NCBI GenBank assembly: GCA_051531975.1 | Contig: JAOPTT010000010.1 | Span: 160,001-224,000, forward strand | From: Spirochaetaceae bacterium | GTDB lineage: Bacteria > Spirochaetota > Spirochaetia > DSM-2461 | Direction: 5' to 3' | Length of the DNA stretch: 64,000 bases | Shown here: piece by piece, positions 38,810 to 51,901 of the stretch | How the letters are laid out: each line of letters opens with the position of its first letter | Numbering within the stretch: the stretch's first letter is position 1 | Position numbers and translations under genes: made by a program | Notes under the pieces: generated by a model | What the model saw: the letters and a program-made list of their open reading frames with translations, nothing else | Database searches by the model: none | Told to the model about the DNA's origin: nothing

Positions 38810-41800
38810 GTTTCTTCTCCACAGTTCACTTCGTTATTAAATGTTTTTGCTTCAAAATCTAATTCTAAAGCTAATGTTTCATTTAATAGGTAATCCTTAA
38901 AGTTTGTAGCTGCTATAGTAACAGCCTCTGATCCTTTAATTCCAAGTTTTATTCTATCAGTAACCTCTAAGTCACTATCTTTTCTTAAGTTATTAACACC
39001 TCTAACAATATCTCTGACAATACCTTCCTGGATTAAATCCTCAGTTAATACTGCATCCAGGGCAATTGTTATAGAACCTTCGTTTAGAACTTTTAGTCCC
39101 TCTTTCTCAGATCTAGAAACAACAATATGATCTTCTGTTATCTCAACTTCCTGTTCAGTCTTATCAACACCTTCGTAAGAAACATTTAATGTTTTACCAG
39201 CAAGAAGTGCTTGTATCTCTGTTCCTTCTAACCCAGCTATTTTAGCAGCAGCATTTTTCATGTTTTTACCAAGAAGTTTACCTAGTACTTTAAAGTTAGC
39301 TTTACAGCTGTACTCAACTAGTTCCTCTTCGTTGTCTCTTAAAAGAACCTCTTTAACATTAAGTTCCTCTTTAATAATATCTGACATTTCCAACAAAACA
39401 CTTTTTTCATCGGCATTTTTAGTTACCATGAACATAGACTTTAAAGGTTGTCTATTTTTAAGAGTATGAAGACTTCTAAGTGCACGACCCATAGAAACTG
39501 CTTGTCTAGTTAAAGACATTTTAAGTTCTAGTCTGTCGTCTCTATTTTCAGCTTTAGCAACTGGGAAGTCACATAAGTGAATAGACATTGGCATATCATC
39601 GGTTTTTAAGTTCTGGTAAATCTCTTCAGAAATATAAGGGATAAACGGACATGCAACTTTTACTAAGTTCATAAGTGCGTACCAAATTGATTGGTATGCT
39701 TGTTGTTTATCCGTATCACTCTCTGATTTCCAGAATCTCTTTCTTGATCTTCTAATATACCAGTTATTTAATGAGTCGATAAATTTTACAAACTCATCAA
39801 TAGATTTTTGTACATCGTATGCATCTAACTTGTCTGTTACATTAGCAATTAATGTTTCAGTCTCTGAGATAATCCACTGATCTAATGGGTTATCTGGGTT
39901 TGTTGGAGCTTCAGATATTTTAACATCATCGATATTTGCATATGTAATAAAGAAACTATAAGAGTTCCAAAGTGGTAAAATTATAGACTTTAGAACATCT
40001 TTAACACCGTCGTCTGAATATTTAAGGCCTTCACCTTTAACAACAGAGCTGTGCATTAAAAATAGTCTAAGTGCATCGGCTCCAAAGTGATTAATAACTT
40101 CCATAGGGTCTGAGTAGTTATTCAGACTCTTTGACATTTTTTTACCGTCGGCTGCTAATACTAAACCATTTACAACAACGTTTTTAAATGCAGGTTTATC
40201 AAATAGTGCTGCAGCTAATACAGTTAAAGTATAAAACCACCCTCTAGTCTGGTCTAAACCTTCTGAGATAAAATCTGCAGGGTAGTTCTTCTCAAACTCC
40301 TCTTTATTTTCAAACGGGTAGTGACTTTGGGCGTATGGCATAGCACCAGACTCAAACCAGCAGTCTAAAACTTCCTCGACTCTATGTTTTGTTCCACCAC
40401 ATTTACATGGGATAGTAACTTCATCTACAAAGTGTTTATGTAAATCGTCAACTCTAACTCCAGAGAGTTCTTCTAACTCATCTCTAGACCCGATACATAT
40501 CTCATCAGTACAATCTTTACACTGCCATATTGGTATTGGGTTACCCCAGTATCTATTTCTTGATACAGACCACTCTCTAGCACCTTCTAACCACTTTCCA
40601 AATCGACCTTTTTTTAGATGAGATGGAGTCCAGTTGATTTGGCTATTTGCATCTAACATTTTAGATTTAACCTGGTCTACATCTATAAACCATGAACTAA
40701 TAGCTCTGTAAATTAATGGGCTTTTACATCTCCAACAGTGTGGGTAACTATGTAAATACTGTTCTCTTTTTACAAGTTTTCCCTCTTCTTTTAATCTGTT
40801 AGTTATATCTTTATCACAATCTTTTACAAATCGGCCTTCATAATCAGATATCTCTTTAGTAAATTTACATTCACCGTCAATTGGGCAAACTGTTTTAATA
40901 TCTGTATGTTTTAATACTAAATAATCGTCTTCACCAAAACCTGGGGCAATGTGAACAATACCAGTACCACTATCTGTTGTTACATAATCAGCTTGGAAAA
41001 TTCTAAAAGCACCTTGCTCTACAGAATCTTCAAAATAAGGAAGTAATGGTTCGTACTCTGTACCAACTAGTTCAGATCCTTTTTTCTCCCACTCTATTTT
41101 AACAGGATTCTCTTCAGTTCCTTTAAAGTATGATGACACTCTCTCTTTAGCCATTATGTAAAAGTCTTCGTCATCCTTGACTTTTACATAATCGATATCT
41201 GATCCTACAGCTAACGCTAGGTTACTTGGTAGTGTCCATGGAGTTGTTGTCCATGCTATAAAATATGTGTTTTCTTCTTCTTTTAATTTAAACTTTACAG
41301 TTATTGCGTTGTCATGAACATCTTCGTATCCACCAAGGTTTAACTCATGTGTAGATAAAACAGTAGAACATCTTGGGCAATAAGGCATAATTCTATGACC
41401 TTCGTATACTAAGCCTTTATCCCATAACTGCTTAAAAACCCACCATATTGATTCCATATAGTCAACGTCCATAGTTTTATAATCATTATCAAAATCTACC
41501 CATCGACCTAGTCGACTTATTACTGTTTCCCACTCTTTTGTAAATCTTAAAACTATTGATCTACATTTTTCGTTAAATTCAGGGATTCCATATTTTTCAA
41601 TTTCAGCTTTACCAGATATTCCAAGTTCTTTTTCCATTTCAAACTCTACTGGTAGACCATGACAGTCCCAACCAAAACGTCTTTCTACTTTTTTTCCTTT
41701 CATTGTTTGGTATCGAGGAAATATATCTTTTATTGTTCCCGGAACAAAATGTCCAAAGTGTGGAAGTCCAGTTGCAAATGGAGGGCCATCAAACATAATA

Positions 41801-45113: not shown

Positions 45114-46004
45114 TACTTTAGGTTTACTGTAGTAAATAATAATTGATATAGCTACAATTATCATACCAGCTATAGCTTTAACATTGGGGGAGTCATTTGG
45201 CATTATAATCCAGCCTAAGATTCCTCCAGCTACAGGCATAATAAACTTCCAGATATTCATACTAATTAAACTCTCTTTTCTTTTTGCTAATAAGTGGTAC
45301 CACATAGAGAATCCTGCAGCCGATACAAAAATTAACCACCCTAGAGCGATGTAAAACTTTATAGGTAAAATAAATGTAATATCTTGGTACAAAAAAAGTG
45401 ACATAATAAATAGTGTAAGTCCACCCATTATTAATTGAGCAGAAGTTAAAACCGATGGTTTAATTCCTGTTTTATATTTTAAAACAAATACATTACTAAA
45501 CGCACCAGCAATTGAGCTTAAGATAAAAAGAATAATACCAATAGTCTCAGTTGGGTCTGGTAACGAACCATTTTTGCCACCACCTAAAGATACAACAGTA
45601 ACTCCAGTAACCCCTAATATAAAACTAAAGACCTTTTTTTTGGTAAAAACCTCTGTCGATACAAAGAAGTGTCCTAAAATAGCCCCTATCATCGGTCCAA
45701 GACCAACTAGGGCTGCACCTGTTGATGCTTTTATTCGATCCAGAGCTAAAAAATATAAAAAGTAGACACATACTGTTTGCAATAGTCCAACAATAGCAAT
45801 TATTTTAAAGTGATCTTTAACTTCGGTTAAATACCCTTTTGTTCCTGCAAAGGGTATTAATATAAGTCCAGCTAATAAAAACCTTACACCAGCAATAAAT
45901 ATTGGTTGTGCAAATGTTAAAGCGTATTTAACTCCAACAAATGCAGTTGACCACAATAGACAGGCAAGAAGTGCAAGAGTCCAACTAGGAACCCTATATT
46001 TCAC
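45105..46004 (-). CDS. DMT/EamA family transporter
   Basis: About 10 TM helices; LWSTAFVGVK, RFLLAG; two EamA halves. Confidence 0.88.
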   Translation of the reverse strand: MKYRVPSWTLALLACLLWSTAFVGVKYALTFAQPIFIAGVRFLLAGLILIPFAGTKGYLTEVKDHFKIIAIVGLLQTVCVYFLYFLALDRIKASTGAALVGLGPMIGAILGHFFVSTEVFTKKKVFSFILGVTGVTVVSLGGGKNGSLPDPTETIGIILFILSSIAGAFSNVFVLKYKTGIKPSVLTSAQLIMGGLTLFIMSLFLYQDITFILPIKFYIALGWLIFVSAAGFSMWYHLLAKRKESLISMNIWKFIMPVAGGILGWIIMPNDSPNVKAIAGMIIVAISIIIYYSKPKVLK

Positions 46005-47769
46005 GGGTTTTTGTCTCTAACCACTTAATCTCTTCCGGCTCTAAATATGGTTCTAATCTATCTTGAACCTGGGTATGGTAAGTATTTATCCAGTTTAATT
46101 CCTCTTCTGTTAGTAGGTCTGGGTCAATTAAGTTTATATCGTATGGGTACAGGGTTAACGTTTCAAATTCGTAGAACTTCTGATCAACTCCCTGGGATGA
46201 AAACTTTGTTAATACAAGGTTCTCAATTCTAATACCATGTTTTCCCTCTATATAAAGTCCAGGTTCGTTAGATGTAATCATTCCCTCTTTAAGTTCAGCC
46301 TTAAAACTTTTTGGTGAGATATTTTGAGGCCCTTCGTGGACACCTAAAAAGTACCCTACTCCGTGACCAGTTCCATGTCCAAAGTTTAAACCATAATCCC
46401 AAAGTGGTTGTCTTGCTAATACATCTAGCTGTCCACCTTTTGTACCCTCTGGGTATTTACACATATTAAGTTTTAGATGGCCTTTTAATACAAGAGTATA
46501 GTGTAGGATCTCCTCTACTGTTGGTTTACCTAACGTTATAGTTCTTGTTATATCTGTAGTCCCCTGGTAATACTGCCCTCCAGAGTCTATTAGTAGAAGC
46601 CCCTCTGGACCTATTGTTAATGCTGAATCTTCTTCTGCACTATAATGACAAAGAGCACCATTACTTCTGTAACCTATAATTGGATCAAAACTTTCATCAA
46701 CACAGCCATCCATAGATAACCTGGCCTCTCTCAGCATAGGGGCAAGAGAATATTCGGTAAAAGTTTCTGTAGCTCTTTTTTCATTAAAAGCTTTAAAAAA
46801 CTTAACTAAAGCAGCTCCATCTTTCTCCATTGCAATTCTTACGTTTGCGATCTCTGTACTATTTTTAATTGACTTTAGATCTTCTGTTATATCCATACCA
46901 GTTTTAACATTACAAATATCTGGGATTAATCCAGATAAAAAGCAATTAACACTTTCTGCCATAAAATAAACAGTAGAATCACTTTTAAGCTTTACTATTG
47001 AATCTGCAATATCTGTATAGCTAGAAATAGTTACTCCACTTTTTTCTAATGATGATTTAACACCCATTGGTAATTTTTTATCATCAATAAATAAATTTAC
47101 ACTTTGGGAGTAGATTATGGCATAACTAATAGCTAGAGGAGTATAATCTACATCTGCAGCTCTAATATTAAATAACCAGGCAATATCAGCTAAAGAGGAG
47201 ATAATGTAAGAATCTACTTTTTTATCCTTCATTATAGATTGAACCCTGGATATTTTGTCGATTGTAGACTCTCCAGAATATTTAACATCAAGTTCAAATA
47301 CCTCAGATGCTGCATTAGCAGGTCTATCTGTCCATAATATAGTGGAATCAAACTCTTTGTTAAAAGTAATACCCTTTTCATCAAACCTGTTTTTATACTC
47401 AGTATAACTAGATGTTGGAAAAAGTGTTCCATCAATTCCAATAACATCCCCTGAATTTAATGATGATTCTAGAAATTCAGTAATAGTTGGAACATCTTTG
47501 TTACCCATTTTATATAGTTTAATCTCAGAACCATCTAATTGTTCTGAAGCTTGTATGAAATATCTAAAATCAGTCCATAATCCAGACTCTTTTAATGTTA
47601 TAACCAGTGTTCCTGCACTTCCAGTAAACTCTGAGTACCAGCCTCTTGTTTTCCAGTGCCCATGTACATATTCGCTTGAATGAGGATCAGTGCTAGGAAT
47701 AATAACAGCAGCGATACCTTCGTTTTTCATTATTTCTCGTAGTTTTAATAGTTTTTCTTCTCTGTTCAT
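45994..47769 (-). CDS. Xaa-Pro aminopeptidase (aminopeptidase P, M24B)
   Basis: DPHSSEY, FTGSAG, DSGGQY..GTTDITRT, HGTGHGVG, VHEGP, SNEPG, GIRIEN. Confidence 0.94.
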   Translation of the reverse strand: MNREEKLLKLREIMKNEGIAAVIIPSTDPHSSEYVHGHWKTRGWYSEFTGSAGTLVITLKESGLWTDFRYFIQASEQLDGSEIKLYKMGNKDVPTITEFLESSLNSGDVIGIDGTLFPTSSYTEYKNRFDEKGITFNKEFDSTILWTDRPANAASEVFELDVKYSGESTIDKISRVQSIMKDKKVDSYIISSLADIAWLFNIRAADVDYTPLAISYAIIYSQSVNLFIDDKKLPMGVKSSLEKSGVTISSYTDIADSIVKLKSDSTVYFMAESVNCFLSGLIPDICNVKTGMDITEDLKSIKNSTEIANVRIAMEKDGAALVKFFKAFNEKRATETFTEYSLAPMLREARLSMDGCVDESFDPIIGYRSNGALCHYSAEEDSALTIGPEGLLLIDSGGQYYQGTTDITRTITLGKPTVEEILHYTLVLKGHLKLNMCKYPEGTKGGQLDVLARQPLWDYGLNFGHGTGHGVGYFLGVHEGPQNISPKSFKAELKEGMITSNEPGLYIEGKHGIRIENLVLTKFSSQGVDQKFYEFETLTLYPYDINLIDPDLLTEEELNWINTYHTQVQDRLEPYLEPEEIKWLETKTREI

Positions 47770-47833: not shown

Positions 47834-47860
47834 TAAAGTCCAGACGCTCAAATCCGATAC
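47834..47860 (+). promoter_or_regulatory. Sigma-28 (FliA)-type promoter
   Basis: TAAA (47834-47837)-N15-TCCGATAC (47853-47860) versus consensus TAAA-N15-GCCGATAA. Confidence 0.7.
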
Positions 47861-47867
47861 TAATATT

Positions 47868-48038
47868 GTAACGCACAATGTCCCCTCCAAAGTGATATAA
47901 GTGTTGCCTAAGTCATTGTCTTATTTGCCTAATGATAATGATTAAACTACTAGTGAGTCTTCCCTCCCAAAAGACGACTTATGAAATAGTTGGATTATAT
48001 AAACCCCAGCTTTGCCTGAGCTGGGGTTTACTCTTTTA
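47868..48038 (+). ncRNA. Putative four-hairpin small RNA with alternating CCCUCC / UUGCCU loops
   Basis: Four consecutive stem-loops; G-U pairs are consistent only with the + strand; starts 7 nt after the sigma-28 -10 and ends in a 12-bp GC-rich terminator hairpin. Confidence 0.65.
48000..48038 (+). terminator. Intrinsic terminator (3' hairpin of the putative sRNA)
   Basis: TAAACCCCAGCT-ttgcctg-AGCTGGGGTTTA perfect 12-bp stem followed by CTCTTTT. Confidence 0.8.
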
Positions 48039-48142
48039 TAAGCATGTTTAAATCTTGAAGATGTTAACTTCTTGGCTAACTTTATCTTTAATTCTAAATT
48101 TATATAATTTTTTCTCCTATAGATAATACAGAGGAGTAAAAA

Positions 48143-51100
48143 ATGTCTACAAAACAAAAAATCTGGGTGTTTTTATACCTACTACTATCTATTCCTTTAT
48201 TTGCAAAATCAGAAACTGAAACAATCTATAATGCAGATCTACAGATTTTAGATGGGACTACAACTACCCAGGAAATTAAGCTGTTAAGAGGTTTTAGTAA
48301 TGGTGTTATTGAAATTAAACTAAAACCTAAAGGTATACTCAAAGACTTTTATATTTTTAATAAGGAAGAATCTGATACAGAGTATCTTGTTAATTCTGAT
48401 CTAGATTTTGAAAGTAATGAAGATGAGATAAACTTAGAAATTATTAGTGTTAAAAGTATTACATATTCTGGTGATTTAACAATTTTAAAATATAAACCTA
48501 AAACAGTAACACTAAATTATTCAGATCAAGTAATAACTAAAGCAATATGGTTAATAGATAAAGATAACGTAGATAAATCTTTCCAGATAGAGTTAAAAAT
48601 AAATCCATCTATAGATATAAATTTAGAAGAGACTGTAACCCCGGAACAAATGGAAACCTACCTAATAAGAAACCCAGCTGCTAAAAGGTTTCTAAAAAAA
48701 CAATTAATGGGCAGTACGACTTTTAGTCCAACATCTACTAACCCATTTCCAATTGCAAATATAACAAATGAGAAATTCTATAAAGTCTCTTCAGAGTTAT
48801 TTAATAGTAAGATGATAATTAAAAGAGAGCTAGAGAGAACAGATATAAATTATTTTGACTCTATTTATAACAATACTATTAGTAGTAATTCTGAGTTTGC
48901 TGATTCTATAATTCAAAGATTGTTACGTATTTATTTCAATAAAAACAAACCACTATTCCACAGCTATATAAATAACTTTATGGAGTATAAGTTTGATTAC
49001 AATCAGTATGAAAAACTTACTGCAATACAGGGAAAAGAGTTAGCAGATAGTGCTTTAAAGTACTTAACCTGGGGAGTAGAATATACTAACGATGTAAATT
49101 ATAGAGAGTTATCCTCAGGGTCTAAGTTCCCATCTGAAATTATTAAAAATTCACCAACACTACAACAGTGGTTATCTGGGGTACAAGTTGAACTAGAAAC
49201 AAATCAAACAGGTGAAATAGTGAACTCTTTAGACCCTACTTATACTAGTGAACAAATAGAATATTTTAAAACAATTATCAGAGAGAGAAACTTAAATATA
49301 ACAACTCCTTTTAACTCTATAACTGGTTCATCCCTACCCTATGCTAAAGATGGTATAGATAACCCTAGAACCTTTAACTACAAGTTATTAAGACAAAAAG
49401 AGGTAATAAAAAGAGTTTTTAATAGGTTTAAATACAGAACATATGGTAAAAATGGCAAAGTAAATCCTACTCTGTTTAGCTTTAAATCAAGTGGTGTATC
49501 TACTCCTAAGATCTCTGATTATTACTTTTTTTTAAACGATGGAACAACTAATCTTAACAGTGATAGTCCATTCTTCCCTGGGTTAACCGATGATAATAGT
49601 TATAAAGGTTTAAATATAACTGGTGTTGATAGTTTAGGTCTTTTATCTGGAGCACTTAGTAAAACTACATATAAAGATGATATTTTAGGTTTAGACAATG
49701 AATCTAAGTTAGAAGAATTAGATAGTTATTATAGAACAACTATTCCTACTTTTAAAATAAATCCAGAAACTAATATAGATTACATGAGACTTTCAAGGTT
49801 TGATTTAGAACGAACAACTGTAATTGTACCAGATTTAAATAAAATACAGGTTGGAGACTTACTAGTTAAAGGTTTAGATAGTACAGAGATTGCAATAGTT
49901 ATCGATGTAGGGGTTCAAAGCAGTACTAACAGTTTTGATATCGGTAAAGTATTAGTTTTATCGGTAACTAAGGATAATGGTAGAGTTTCTCTAAATTATT
50001 GGGGTAATAGTGGTAATAACTACAGTTTTACAACGGAACCTAAAAACTTTATCCTACGTAGGTTAATAAAGTTTAACAGGACTGAAGAGAACCCAGAGAT
50101 TAATACTTTTACCAGAGATGATTCAGAAGCTGATACATGGGATCCTTTTGTTTTCCAACCAGAACCATTAGTAACCCAGTTTGATATAAATTCATTACAA
50201 AATAACAGCCGTTGGATTCCAAATACTGGAGAACTATTTCAACTGAATTCAATAAAAATTGGATATAATGATGACGCTGGAATATTTACTGAGATCGATG
50301 AATCAAATATTTCTGTAATAATAGAACCTCCATCTGACCTGAACTTTACTGTAGAATCTAAAACTACAAATATATTAAATAACAGAGGTGATGGTTTTGC
50401 TTTTTATGCAGTTAAACACAGAAAATTATTTGGAAGAAAATACTACGATGCTGTTAGACTTGCAACTTTTACAATAAACCCAATGGCTACAAACCAAAGT
50501 GATAACTACTTAATATCCTATGATGATGACATATTTACAGAGGAAGGTTTATGCAGAGTTCCTTACAAATTAGTATATGTTAAAAATGTAGGTTTAACTT
50601 TTAAAACAGGTCGGACCGAAGACTATACCCAGTTTGCAATTAGGCCACTAGAGCAGAATATAAGAACCGGGGATGATATCCTATTAAACTTTACACTACA
50701 AATAGAAAATAACTATGTCCCTGTTAAAACTGAGGATAAAAACTTTTTAGGTGTTTATGATGAAAAACTTCTATGGAGAGCTAACTTATACATTGATGAT
50801 CCAGGTAGAGATTGGAATAATATTAACCCTTGGAACTCACCACAAACAAGTAATGATGCAGAAATATATGGCCCAATACTAGATAATAATGTTACAAAAA
50901 GGTTCTTTAAAAACAACAGATCTTCAACTATTGATAGAGTATGGTATGGTCCAAATCTATGGAATACTCCCCCAGAGAACTACAATAAAATAAAAGGTGG
51001 GCAGATAATAAAAATTGTTAAATATTCCAATATATTTGGTGGGGATACCCCTTATTCTGTGGCATATAGCTACCCTGATACAGCTAGTACAAAAAATGGA

Positions 51101-51901
51101 CGAGACACTCCTTTTGACTTTAACAATAAATTAAATGAGCAAAAGAAACTTTTAGAAGATGCTTACAATTCTGGAGGTATAAAATTGTCTACCACACCAA
51201 ACAATACTTCCCCATGGACTAAGATAACCCCACCAAAAGAAAAGTGGTCGAACTATCTGACAAACGATGCTACCATAGGTGACAATAGTTACACACCATA
51301 TCTGCCTGGGCTTGGTTTAATAGAGTGGTATAGTAAAAATACAAACATACAGGCAAGCACACAGTTTATAAATAGTATTTATGTAGGAAATGGGCTTGGT
51401 ATTGGTAAATATAAAGAGGTTAAGTGGCCAAAGAGGTTTGCAGGTACGGACTGCATTGGCTTTGCACAGAATGCAGCAAACATAGACCAGTATAAGTGGA
51501 ATATCCCACCAACCGGCAACAGCAGTTACACTTCAACACCAATATTCAGAACCTACCCCAGAACAAAGGAAGATGCAGAGCTAGGCTCATGGACAGCATT
51601 CTCTGATTTCATTGTGGGGAAGTCTAATACTGAGGTTGATGATGATGACGATTATATAATTAAAGGTAATATAAATAGCGTTAAACCAGGAGATATTTTT
51701 TATCATATAGGAATTCCAAATTCTCCACAAAGTGGAAGTGGAAAACATGTGGGTATTGTACTTAGTATAGAAAATAACAATCTAAAAATAATTGAAAGTA
51801 CATATAACGAAGGCGATAGTAACTTATCATATGTGATTGATACTAGAAATTTAGCATACTACAATCACAAACATTGGCGTTTAGTAAGATTAAAAAAGTA
51901 A
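48143..51901 (+). CDS. Large secreted protein with two NlpC/P60-like (papain-fold) domains; C-terminal one putatively catalytic
   Basis: Sec signal peptide; C-terminal GTDCIGFAQ...VKPGDIFY...HVGIV...IIEST; internal degenerate copy GVDSLGLLS...IQVGDLLV...EIAIV. Confidence 0.7.
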   Translation: MSTKQKIWVFLYLLLSIPLFAKSETETIYNADLQILDGTTTTQEIKLLRGFSNGVIEIKLKPKGILKDFYIFNKEESDTEYLVNSDLDFESNEDEINLEIISVKSITYSGDLTILKYKPKTVTLNYSDQVITKAIWLIDKDNVDKSFQIELKINPSIDINLEETVTPEQMETYLIRNPAAKRFLKKQLMGSTTFSPTSTNPFPIANITNEKFYKVSSELFNSKMIIKRELERTDINYFDSIYNNTISSNSEFADSIIQRLLRIYFNKNKPLFHSYINNFMEYKFDYNQYEKLTAIQGKELADSALKYLTWGVEYTNDVNYRELSSGSKFPSEIIKNSPTLQQWLSGVQVELETNQTGEIVNSLDPTYTSEQIEYFKTIIRERNLNITTPFNSITGSSLPYAKDGIDNPRTFNYKLLRQKEVIKRVFNRFKYRTYGKNGKVNPTLFSFKSSGVSTPKISDYYFFLNDGTTNLNSDSPFFPGLTDDNSYKGLNITGVDSLGLLSGALSKTTYKDDILGLDNESKLEELDSYYRTTIPTFKINPETNIDYMRLSRFDLERTTVIVPDLNKIQVGDLLVKGLDSTEIAIVIDVGVQSSTNSFDIGKVLVLSVTKDNGRVSLNYWGNSGNNYSFTTEPKNFILRRLIKFNRTEENPEINTFTRDDSEADTWDPFVFQPEPLVTQFDINSLQNNSRWIPNTGELFQLNSIKIGYNDDAGIFTEIDESNISVIIEPPSDLNFTVESKTTNILNNRGDGFAFYAVKHRKLFGRKYYDAVRLATFTINPMATNQSDNYLISYDDDIFTEEGLCRVPYKLVYVKNVGLTFKTGRTEDYTQFAIRPLEQNIRTGDDILLNFTLQIENNYVPVKTEDKNFLGVYDEKLLWRANLYIDDPGRDWNNINPWNSPQTSNDAEIYGPILDNNVTKRFFKNNRSSTIDRVWYGPNLWNTPPENYNKIKGGQIIKIVKYSNIFGGDTPYSVAYSYPDTASTKNGRDTPFDFNNKLNEQKKLLEDAYNSGGIKLSTTPNNTSPWTKITPPKEKWSNYLTNDATIGDNSYTPYLPGLGLIEWYSKNTNIQASTQFINSIYVGNGLGIGKYKEVKWPKRFAGTDCIGFAQNAANIDQYKWNIPPTGNSSYTSTPIFRTYPRTKEDAELGSWTAFSDFIVGKSNTEVDDDDDYIIKGNINSVKPGDIFYHIGIPNSPQSGSGKHVGIVLSIENNNLKIIESTYNEGDSNLSYVIDTRNLAYYNHKHWRLVRLKK

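Follow-up and report, generated by a model that had tools for sequence, protein, structure and literature searches.

The 64,000-nt stretch of DNA analysed here (Spirochaetaceae bacterium, assembly GCA_051531975.1, contig JAOPTT010000010.1, positions 160,001 to 224,000; hereafter the window) carries at 47834-48038, on the plus strand, what its sequence and conservation mark as a real, conserved non-coding small RNA (sRNA) gene of a marine spirochaete. A promoter of the sigma-28 (FliA) type leads into four predicted hairpins in which two short motifs recur, and the last hairpin doubles as an intrinsic terminator. The parts of the locus are these:

47834..47841, plus strand: -35 element of the sigma-28-type promoter (TAAAGTCC), by direct reading and conservation
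47853..47860, plus strand: -10 element of the same promoter (TCCGATAC), by direct reading and conservation
47866..48038, plus strand: predicted sRNA transcript of ~170 nt, its 5' end placed at 47866-47868 and its 3' end in the U run
47868..47907, plus strand: hairpin 1, the putative ancestral hairpin, with apical loop CCCCUCCAAAGU at 47882-47893 (fold and alignment)
47904..47909, plus strand: first copy of UUGCCU, reaching from the 3' foot of hairpin 1 into the linker
47911..47943, plus strand: hairpin 2, its loop holding the second copy of UUGCCU at 47925-47930
47945..47991, plus strand: hairpin 3, with loop UUCCCUCCCAAAAG and its core at 47962-47971
48000..48038, plus strand: hairpin 4, the intrinsic terminator, with a 13-bp stem, the third copy of UUGCCU (48012-48017) in its loop and then CUCUUUUAU
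45994..47769, minus strand: divergent M24 (Xaa-Pro aminopeptidase-like) gene outside the RNA, used as synteny anchor (Pfam Peptidase_M24, Creatinase_N and related domains)

Direct reading finds CCCTCC at 47883-47888 and 47962-47967 and TTGCCT at 47904-47909, 47925-47930 and 48012-48017, in agreement with the motifs and coordinates of the original prediction, a note made earlier on this DNA from its letters. The promoter runs from TAAA (47834-47837) through N15 to TCCGATAC, with 11 nt between the TAAAGTCC and TCCGATAC boxes, and is followed by TAATA and then TTGTAAC. We place the 5' end at 47866-47868 because the RNA of the canonical relatives described below (5' RUGUCGG) begins 5 nt after CGATAA. 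Folding of 47865-48040 on the plus strand returns exactly the four hairpins that had been proposed, hairpin 4 being paired over 48000-48030 in the minimum-free-energy structure. The energy of this fold, -49.7 kcal/mol (z = -6.31), was matched by 0/200 shuffles, and a terminator scan recovers a 13-pair stem with a T run on the same strand. The two motifs are also far more frequent here than chance would provide: the 5.457-Mb genome holds 481 copies of CCCTCC and 1271 of TTGCCT on both strands, or ~0.008 and ~0.02 expected per 170 nt, against the 2 and 3 observed in the ~170-nt RNA. No Rfam 15 family matches the window at gathering score, and E-value mode gives only terminator-driven matches far below threshold.

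Two other ways of reading the locus were tried and rejected. A small open reading frame (ORF) is limited to the sole plus-strand ATG frame in hairpin 1, which has five codons and is not kept in relatives. A CsrA sponge of the CsrB/RsmZ type, encoded on the minus strand, would display GGA twice, yet no promoter or terminator is suitably placed for it; the minus strand folds less well (z = -2.81) and turns conserved G-U pairs into A-C mismatches. On the plus strand, the loops of the fold hold no GGA, the signature of CsrA sequestration.

When 41 related genomes were searched at the DNA level, four proved to carry the element, namely the window genome and all three others of its genus, at 83-88% identity. 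Loop-pattern scans of public sequence yielded true homologues in 2 of 21 genome stretches and 1 of 44 metagenome contigs, the remainder being chance matches; the two genome homologues were genus genomes already known, and the new copy is the one on a metagenome contig. Homology within the genus starts at the -35 box and stops past the U run of the terminator, and variant copies in three metagenome DNA runs share these borders with their loops unaltered. The single metatranscriptome from this sample (X4, 11.5 million letters) gave no match to the stretch, a result that weighs neither for nor against transcription. The -35 box is retained as TAAAGT/TTAAGT in 4/4 genus genomes and the -10 motif CCGATA is invariant in them, with GTCGATAC found on the cut metagenome contig, while the 11-nt spacer is variable.

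Variation within the RNA itself tends to preserve its structure. In the five-sequence alignment, double compensatory changes occur in 6/52 pairs, all of them in hairpins 3 and 4 (at two stem pairs in the latter). Hairpins 1 and 2 show only one-sided G-U/A-U exchanges, which fit the plus strand and bear out the use that the original prediction had made of G-U pairs to fix the strand; the stem of hairpin 2 is nearly invariant, so covariation is uninformative there. The loops stand still in 5/5 homologues: the hairpin 1 loop, AUUUGCCU in hairpin 2, UCCCUCCCAAA in hairpin 3 and UUUGCCU in hairpin 4 are invariant, UUGCCU being invariant in the hairpin 2 and 4 loops alike. The linker copy of UUGCCU is altered in 2/5 homologues: G002 has a 1-nt deletion there, and G003 reads UUGCUU. 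The expectation of conserved loops was therefore borne out for the C-rich loops and for the UUGCCU loops of hairpins 2 and 4, and failed for the linker copy. The companion claim, that stems differ while loops recur, stood for hairpins 3 and 4 and fell for hairpins 1 and 2, and a duplicated two-loop module cannot be demonstrated from sequence.

The M24 gene adjoins the sRNA in 3/3 other genus genomes, where the genes downstream are unrelated and lie on the opposite strand. As the downstream genes differ between species, we reject a role as leader or attenuator; the proposal of an independent plus-strand sRNA gene finds agreement in the fold, the conservation and these unrelated neighbours. In the window, the sRNA is followed by a 1252-aa ORF (48143-51901, plus strand) with a signal-peptide-like N-terminus and no Pfam match at E <= 0.001, and the sequence retrieved from downstream of the sRNA in three genus relatives showed no match to it.

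Beyond the genus, sequence similarity fades quickly. A covariance model built from the genus (R1) and searched in the remaining 34 genomes of its family, which is the whole order in this collection, gave only weak, terminator-driven matches and nothing convincing. The M24 gene, present in 37/38 genomes, offers an anchor, and we read 30 loci on its divergent side. There, an RNA of 86-109 nt stands at 11/11 loci of genus g4, at 2/2 readable loci of g3 (two further contigs are cut) and at 5/8 of g2. Each is a single long hairpin with a C-rich loop, followed by a terminator; the apical loop reads UUCCCCUCCCAA in g3 and g4 and ACCCCUCCCA in g2, the latter with a CCCUCCCC terminator loop. All family relatives (22/22) have TnAA at a fixed distance upstream of (G)CCGA, and those of g3 and g4 share with the window RNA its promoter, its 5' GUAGCGGG/GUAACGC and its loop. 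Structures of the hairpin 2 type and UUGCCU are missing from the relatives read outside the genus.

The M24-adjacent relatives carry their own signs of a selected structure. Across 13 sequences from g3 and g4, compensatory changes occur in 8/24 pairs, 92% of cells are paired, and the covariation score of 0.329, against 0.158 in shuffles, is attained by 0/500 column shuffles. A second covariance model (R2), built from these g3/g4-type relatives, matches 11/11 genomes of g4 and 3/4 of g3; elsewhere, including outside the order, it finds nothing real, its weak matches being terminator-driven, and relaxing the threshold adds a g6 copy whose TAAA-N15-ACCGATAA is perfect. Rfam gives 0 matches at gathering score in eight family loci.

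Two unrelated observations were made in the course of these searches. At locus L176 (G042:C77:206741-209814), ~27 consecutive weak R2 matches crowd one strand of 3 kb, a dense array of 50-100-nt units that resemble a hairpin plus a U run. At two places on contig C1 of G019 (L010 and L012) stand near-identical, terminator-ended elements of ~240 nt (AAAAUUGCAGAAAUAAAUUAUAUCG...), which are unrelated to the sRNA studied here and might represent either the end of a mobile element or an sRNA that was duplicated.

A wider pattern scan of 401 genomes of the class (TnAA, 15-16 nt, CCGA, 20-50 nt, CCCCTCCC) exposed a recurrent RNA of ~80-95 nt in several other families, which we call canonical (~85 nt). 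It begins (R/U)UGUC, RUGUCGG being paired with CCGACA in most members; next come the inner stem AUAUAG/CUAUAU, the loop UUCCCCUCCCAGUUUA and a terminator. The apical loop is UUCCCCUCCCAG, C-rich and complementary to Shine-Dalgarno (SD) sequences, hence anti-SD. A third covariance model (R3), built from 19 canonical members of five families and run on 151 class genomes, matched 101 of them, with exactly one copy in 100 and a second weak match in G039. The families with matches include f2 (7/7), f6 (3/3), f9 (8/8), f10 (6/6), f16 (4/4), f18 (8/8), f25 (6/6), f28 (6/6), f31 (5/5) and f34 (8/8). R3 found no match in f3 (0/6), f5 (0/3), f7 (0/4), f13 (0/8), f20 (0/1), f21 (0/4), f26 (0/1) or f27 (0/8), and in f35 a relaxed threshold revealed weak homologues with the same loop in 3/3 genomes examined. 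In 20 class loci Rfam gave no match at gathering score, and its relaxed mode gave only terminator-driven ones.

In promoter, start (CGATAC-TAATA-TTGTAAC) and hairpin 1 design, the window RNA agrees point for point with the canonical form. It has the canonical promoter TAAA-N15-nnCGATAA placed 5 nt before a (R/U)UGU start; its first hairpin has the 5' UGU, outer stem, inner AU-rich stem and apical C-rich CCCCUCC(C) loop; and it ends in an intrinsic terminator, with two extra hairpins in between. Both forms are present in one copy per genome and both complement the ribosome-binding sites of fliF and ftsZ discussed below. They differ in that the window RNA is twice as long, has three extra hairpins, is M24-adjacent, reads CCCCUCCAAAG in the hairpin 1 loop where the canonical form has UUCCCCUCCCAG, and adds three UUGCCU motifs as well as another C-rich loop. 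We read the window RNA, on these likenesses, as a lineage-specific, enlarged relative of an sRNA found in most sigma-28-bearing families of the class. The description of it as an undescribed spirochaetal sRNA holds as far as Rfam goes and has to be extended, since with relatives across the class it is not a lone oddity.

Genus g3 (loci L301-L304) has two sRNA paralogues, one M24-adjacent and one of canonical type elsewhere (GUGUCGGCG..CAUAGUGCCCCUCCCAGUUUACUAU). Because g3 holds both, the M24-adjacent type looks like a paralogue. Within the order, the canonical-type copy is retained by g5, one g2 genome and g3; in the window's genus, the M24-adjacent type appears to be the sole copy, and an enlarged one. 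A second sRNA-like gene of another sort lies behind a TAAAGT..CCCGATA promoter in family f36 (L299 in G072 and L300 in G400), with two C-rich motifs, CUCCCCUCCCACUUU and the terminator loop CAUCCCCUCCCAGUG. It coexists with a canonical copy (L298) in the same genome and is possibly an independent enlargement or a paralogue.

The promoter ties this family of RNAs to the flagellar sigma factor. The textbook sigma-28 promoter is TAAA-N15-GCCGATAA. Upstream of 30 R3 matches the consensus is TaAa-N17-CGATAAtaata-gTGTCG, with CGAT[AG] in 28/30; since this equals TAAA-N15-GCCGATAA, the class-wide promoter is of the textbook kind, and it agrees, together with the boxes conserved in the genus, with the sigma-28-type promoter first proposed. 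The window genome encodes FliA (282 bits, above cut-off); CsrA adjoins fliW in it, and no Hfq was found there by Pfam. The flagellin gene flaB-1 of the genus has TAAAGTTTATA and TCCGATA boxes conserved in 3/3 genomes, and a mapped sigma-28 promoter of Treponema denticola flaB2 is reported with a -35 of TTAA and a -10 of CCGATAA (PMC9481697).

The distribution of the RNA points the same way. FliA scores above cut-off in 125/151 genomes, and the 26 without it belong to f7, f13, f20, f21, f26 and f27; R3 found the sRNA in 0/26 of these, a count that overstates the statistical weight because FliA-less lineages are few and independent events are few. Five of the six FliA-less families are also without FliF. 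Family f27 has FliF (5/5) yet no FliA and no sRNA (0/8), which matches the published absence of sigma-28 in Borrelia, a spirochaete described as lacking that factor (PMC11607428). Judged by promoter and phyletic pattern, the sRNA gene very probably belongs to the FliA regulon.

What might such an RNA bind? The invariant loop CCCCUCCC could pair with a G-rich ribosome-binding site, to which it is complementary. We screened five single-stranded segments of the RNA against -90..+90 of 4663 crudely called genes and refined the pairing over -40..+15 of 4652 gene starts, with target genes identified by Pfam. The window genome gave 0 matches to the 16S rRNA model (RF00177), despite an assembly completeness of 98.5% as judged from marker genes; its own anti-SD tail is therefore unreadable, and 25 decoys per loop, with CCUCC kept and the flanks shuffled, were used in its place. 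For the hairpin 3 loop, the fliF ribosome-binding site ranks 1/4652, with 15 bp (2 G-U) and -26.7 kcal/mol, and ftsZ ranks third. For the hairpin 1 loop, fliP ranks third, flaB-2 fifth and fliF eighth. Across 3/3 genus genomes the fliF site CUUUUUGGGAGGGGAGU shows no change while the adjoining intergenic DNA is variable, and the G-run site of fliP and the UGGGAGG of ftsZ are each kept in 4/4.

The two leading candidates lie close together. At ~63-77 kb of contig C17 in the window genome, a cell-division cluster (mraY, ftsZ) stands directly 5' of a flgB-type flagellar operon (fliE, fliF), so the two proposed targets are genomic neighbours; ftsZ and fliF are also a few kb apart in G063, G033 and G136, which belong to other families.

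The G-rich sites follow the RNA across the class. Throughout the six genera that make up the order (30 genomes), the fliF ribosome-binding site is UGGGAGGGG(A/G), 2-8 nt before the start, with a G run in its place in some g2 genomes. GGGRGGG precedes fliF in 27/27 genomes of sRNA-bearing families, 25 of them flagged by scan and two being f9 starts that were re-read. It does so in 0/15 genomes of flagellated families in which the sRNA was not found (f27 0/4, f3 0/5, f5 0/3, f38 0/2, f44 0/1); the sites there read AAGGAGC in f27 (4/4) and GGGAGGUG or GGGAGGAG in f5. At ftsZ (30 starts), GGGRGGG occurs in 23/23 of sRNA-bearing families, in 0/6 of f27, f7 and f26 and in 0/1 of f43, a family with weak R3 matches only. 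Whole-RNA duplex energies proved too noisy for a comparison of cognate with non-cognate pairs, and covariation of the loop flanks with the fliF flank of the same genome was read by eye: G051 has a 12-nt perfect match, in G047 and G049 the loop flank CCU..GUAC pairs with GUAC..AGG at fliF, and in g1 a U run pairs with an A run. The loop is complementary to conserved ribosome-binding sites and appears to co-vary with them, which would place the RNA in the anti-SD class of sRNAs. The anti-SD character of the C-rich loops and the flagellar link, both foreseen in the original prediction, are in keeping with the complementarity to fliF and ftsZ and with the phyletic pattern of FliA.

The UUGCCU motifs fared differently. 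Targets had been predicted to be recognised through GGAGGG plus AGGCAA, and this did not hold up: the two occur jointly at 8 non-self sites genome-wide against ~8 expected, and canonical relatives are without UUGCCU. With the joint sites at chance, we treat the two-seed idea as a lead, not a finding. The flaB-2 leader is the only conserved candidate partner. It carries UAGGCAAAGGAUGCCUA in a CsrA-type hairpin, 24 nt 5' of the SD sequence UGGAGGGGA, which in turn matches the hairpin 1 loop over 9 nt, and both sites are invariant in 3/3 genus genomes. The flaB-2 promoter is sigma-70-like (TTGACA) and flaB-1 has the sigma-28 boxes; in T. denticola, flagellin genes are reported to be likewise divided between two sigma factors (PMC9481697). 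Two further candidates were dropped, fliQ as a two-motif target, its site being lost in G001, and a UUGCC match at +56 of fliF, lost in G001 and G003.

The flaB-2 5' region is of some interest in itself. It lies outside the window (G000 C16:21864-22070, minus strand) and spans ~200 nt that are 92% identical in three species (loci L014, L086 and L087). Besides the TTGACA-type promoter, it contains a U9 run, an anti-SD-like AAUCCUCCUUG in its interior and a pair of CsrA-type sites, one a hairpin with AAGGA in its loop and the other a GGA within the SD sequence. An analogous GGAACAAGGAUGUUCC hairpin is present at flaB-1.

We propose, as the probable though far from certain reading of these data, that the window encodes a sigma-28-driven, trans-acting sRNA whose C-rich anti-SD loops block translation of fliF, ftsZ and perhaps flaB-2. 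Its RNA of ~170 nt would start at a FliA-type promoter and end at its own terminator. Hairpin 1 would represent, in local form, an sRNA hairpin of ancient standing in spirochaetes, with an anti-SD, C-rich loop, to which this genus would have added three hairpins, bringing a second C-rich loop (hairpin 3) and the UUGCCU loops. With the activation of FliA at a late stage of flagellar assembly, the RNA would accumulate and its C-rich loops would pair with unusually G-rich ribosome-binding sites, blocking ribosome entry. The main targets would be fliF, which encodes the MS ring, the first building block of the flagellum, and ftsZ; probable additional targets in this genus would be fliP and the sigma-70-type flaB-2 leader. 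The outcome would be a negative feedback from late flagellar expression onto the initiation of new flagella and onto division. Observed here are the anatomy of the gene, its conservation, its variation with the structure kept, the class-wide consensus of its promoter, the tie of its distribution to FliA, and sites at fliF and ftsZ that co-occur with the RNA and complement it; from these we infer transcription, dependence on FliA, pairing in vivo and repression as the direction of the effect.

Several observations weigh against this proposal. R3 does not score the window RNA: it has no match in the window genome, G000, and in the window gives only weak, unrelated matches at 40206 and 23259, so that homology to the canonical family would rest on architecture, promoter and the synteny chain. 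Genus g5 has no sRNA beside the M24 gene (0/3 loci) and retains a G-rich fliF site, while its canonical copy sits elsewhere in the genome. In f35, with its weak homologues, GGGRGGG precedes fliF in only 1/4 genomes, the other 3/4 having a run of six G, and the sRNA-lacking lineages amount to few independent events, ~5-7 families, which means that the support is overstated by the co-occurrence counts. Among targets, decoys too place flagellar genes in the top 2-5%, and G-rich sites are strong SD sequences anyway. The best partner of hairpin 3 in the wider target region is mraY (-28.5), through stem nucleotides that are not conserved; we rejected it on that ground, and the case illustrates how easily single-genome target predictions arise. 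UUGCCU has no convincing mRNA partner in the window genome. For the promoter, the spacer at flaB-1 exceeds that of the sRNA by 2 nt, and TAAAG-N13-17-CCGATA occurs 18 times genome-wide against ~18.6 expected from composition; given no enrichment, the promoter call rests on conservation.

Two further intergenic matches to this motif may mark other FliA-dependent transcripts. One (G000 C2:312045, minus strand) lies just 5' of a ribosome-binding site and the ATG of a short ORF, and the other (G000 C4:1947, plus strand) is followed by UACUCCCCUUCUAAAAG.

A first alternative is that the RNA binds protein, its C-rich and UUGCCU loops docking, for example, a KH-type protein such as KhpA/KhpB that is sequestered by it or acts as its chaperone. 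KH domains favour C-rich single-stranded RNA, and five loop motifs recurring in one 170-nt RNA recall protein-sponge RNAs; the window genome is without Hfq by Pfam, and UUGCCU is without a convincing mRNA partner. KhpB has, moreover, been reported as an RNA-binding protein of Borrelia (PMC11607428). We nevertheless hold this explanation to be unlikely, for it leaves unaccounted for the loop's exact complementarity to the fliF and ftsZ sites, the loss of G-rich sites in RNA-lacking lineages and the genus-by-genus match of loop flanks to fliF flanks, and the single-looped canonical relatives would make poor sponges. Protein binding and mRNA pairing are compatible, as a chaperone could assist the pairing.

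It is similarly improbable, in our judgement, that the RNA is a general anti-SD regulator that damps many genes with strong SD sequences without favouring fliF, ftsZ or flagella in particular. Every anti-SD sequence has CCUCC at its core, the window genome holds 185 GGAGGG motifs ahead of a start codon, and the top-10 lists include ABC-transporter permeases, MraY and an NADH dehydrogenase subunit, among others. Yet decoys that keep CCUCC and shuffle its flanks lose the proposed targets, with median ranks of 109 for fliF, 205 for flaB-2 and 132 for fliP, and no decoy reaches -26.7 for fliF, so strong SD sequences alone do not explain the matches. The 10-mer complementary to the invariant hairpin 3 core has only three non-self copies in the genome (about chance), one of which is the fliF site, and promoter type and phyletic pattern both link the RNA to FliA.

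That another sigma factor reads the gene, whether the housekeeping factor through the A/T-rich TAATAT region or a stress or extracytoplasmic-function (ECF) type, strikes us as decidedly unlikely; the flagellar link would then be indirect. The degenerate boxes of genus g2 (TCAAG and GCCGAA), the differing flaB-1 spacer and the unenriched motif speak for it. Against it stand the class consensus, which is that of the textbook promoter, a simple sigma-70 scan that found no site in front of the RNA, and the absence of the RNA from all 26 FliA-less genomes, 8 of which come from a flagellated family. A cis-acting 5' leader or attenuator of the 1252-aa gene, suggested by the shared strand and a terminator ~105 nt before the ATG, can be set aside as very improbable, as 3/3 other genus genomes have a different, opposite-strand gene downstream, similarity stops past the terminator, and relatives in other genera adjoin unrelated genes.

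The trans-acting, sigma-28-driven sRNA that we favour has partial parallels elsewhere. In RsaE/RoxS of Firmicutes and the cuckoo RNAs of alphaproteobacteria, exposed C-rich loops pair with SD regions, and hairpin modules are repeated. The window RNA and the loci of 28 relatives are, by comparison, without an Rfam match at gathering score, and the window RNA differs from those RNAs in promoter type, phylum and targets. Escherichia coli has sigma-28-dependent sRNAs, namely UhpU, MotR, FliX and FlgO, which are reported to feed back post-transcriptionally on flagellar synthesis (PMC10578931). These stand, like the window RNA, under the flagellar sigma factor; as described in that article, they are derived from untranslated regions, associated with Hfq and in part pair within coding sequences and with ribosomal-protein mRNAs. 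The window RNA would instead be free-standing, with its own promoter and terminator and with anti-SD loops, and has no sequence or Rfam relation to them. Closer in logic may be CJnc170 (FlmR) of Campylobacter jejuni, a FliA-dependent RNA of 47 nt whose over-expression shortens flagella and lowers motility, and which is suggested to repress earlier-class flagellar genes, with flgE, flaB and flgP as proposed targets (PMC11187230). From that account, it is like the proposed window RNA a free-standing gene with a late-to-early feedback logic; it is epsilonproteobacterial, has no sequence relation to the window RNA, is not class-wide as described there, and its targets named there are other than fliF and ftsZ. 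Our full-text literature search (subscription-only literature being outside its scope) found no such spirochaete RNA and no sRNA acting on the fliF start site. New here are the enlarged genus-specific variant, the synteny chain, and the tests of the links to FliA, fliF and ftsZ.

It is tempting to speculate further. A tentative joint reading, which we think less probable than its failure, would see an ancient riboregulator, read by sigma-28 in most FliA-bearing flagellated spirochaetes, whose CCCCUCCC loop clamps co-evolving GGGAGGGG sites at fliF and ftsZ. FliA freed upon completion of the hook-basal body might then couple existing periplasmic flagella to new ones and to division, a step no more probable than the rest. 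That the circuit was lost with sigma-28 in the Borrelia-like lineage is a similarly uncertain part of the reading. The four-hairpin, multi-seed RNA of the window's genus could conceivably also seize the flaB-2 leader at both of its CsrA-type sites, and filament composition might, just as speculatively, shift from the sigma-70 flagellin to the sigma-28 flagellin.

Spirochaetes have a fixed number of periplasmic flagella per pole, renewed at each division, and the control of their number and timing is largely unknown. If our proposal is true, this RNA would provide a simple, testable link between flagellar completion, initiation of a new flagellum and division. The family would also be among the most widely conserved base-pairing sRNAs outside Proteobacteria and Firmicutes, in a phylum with few characterised sRNAs, its weak homologues extending to a family with genomes of small, host-associated size. 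The window version, for its part, would illustrate how an sRNA can be enlarged in one genus by added hairpins and new loop motifs.

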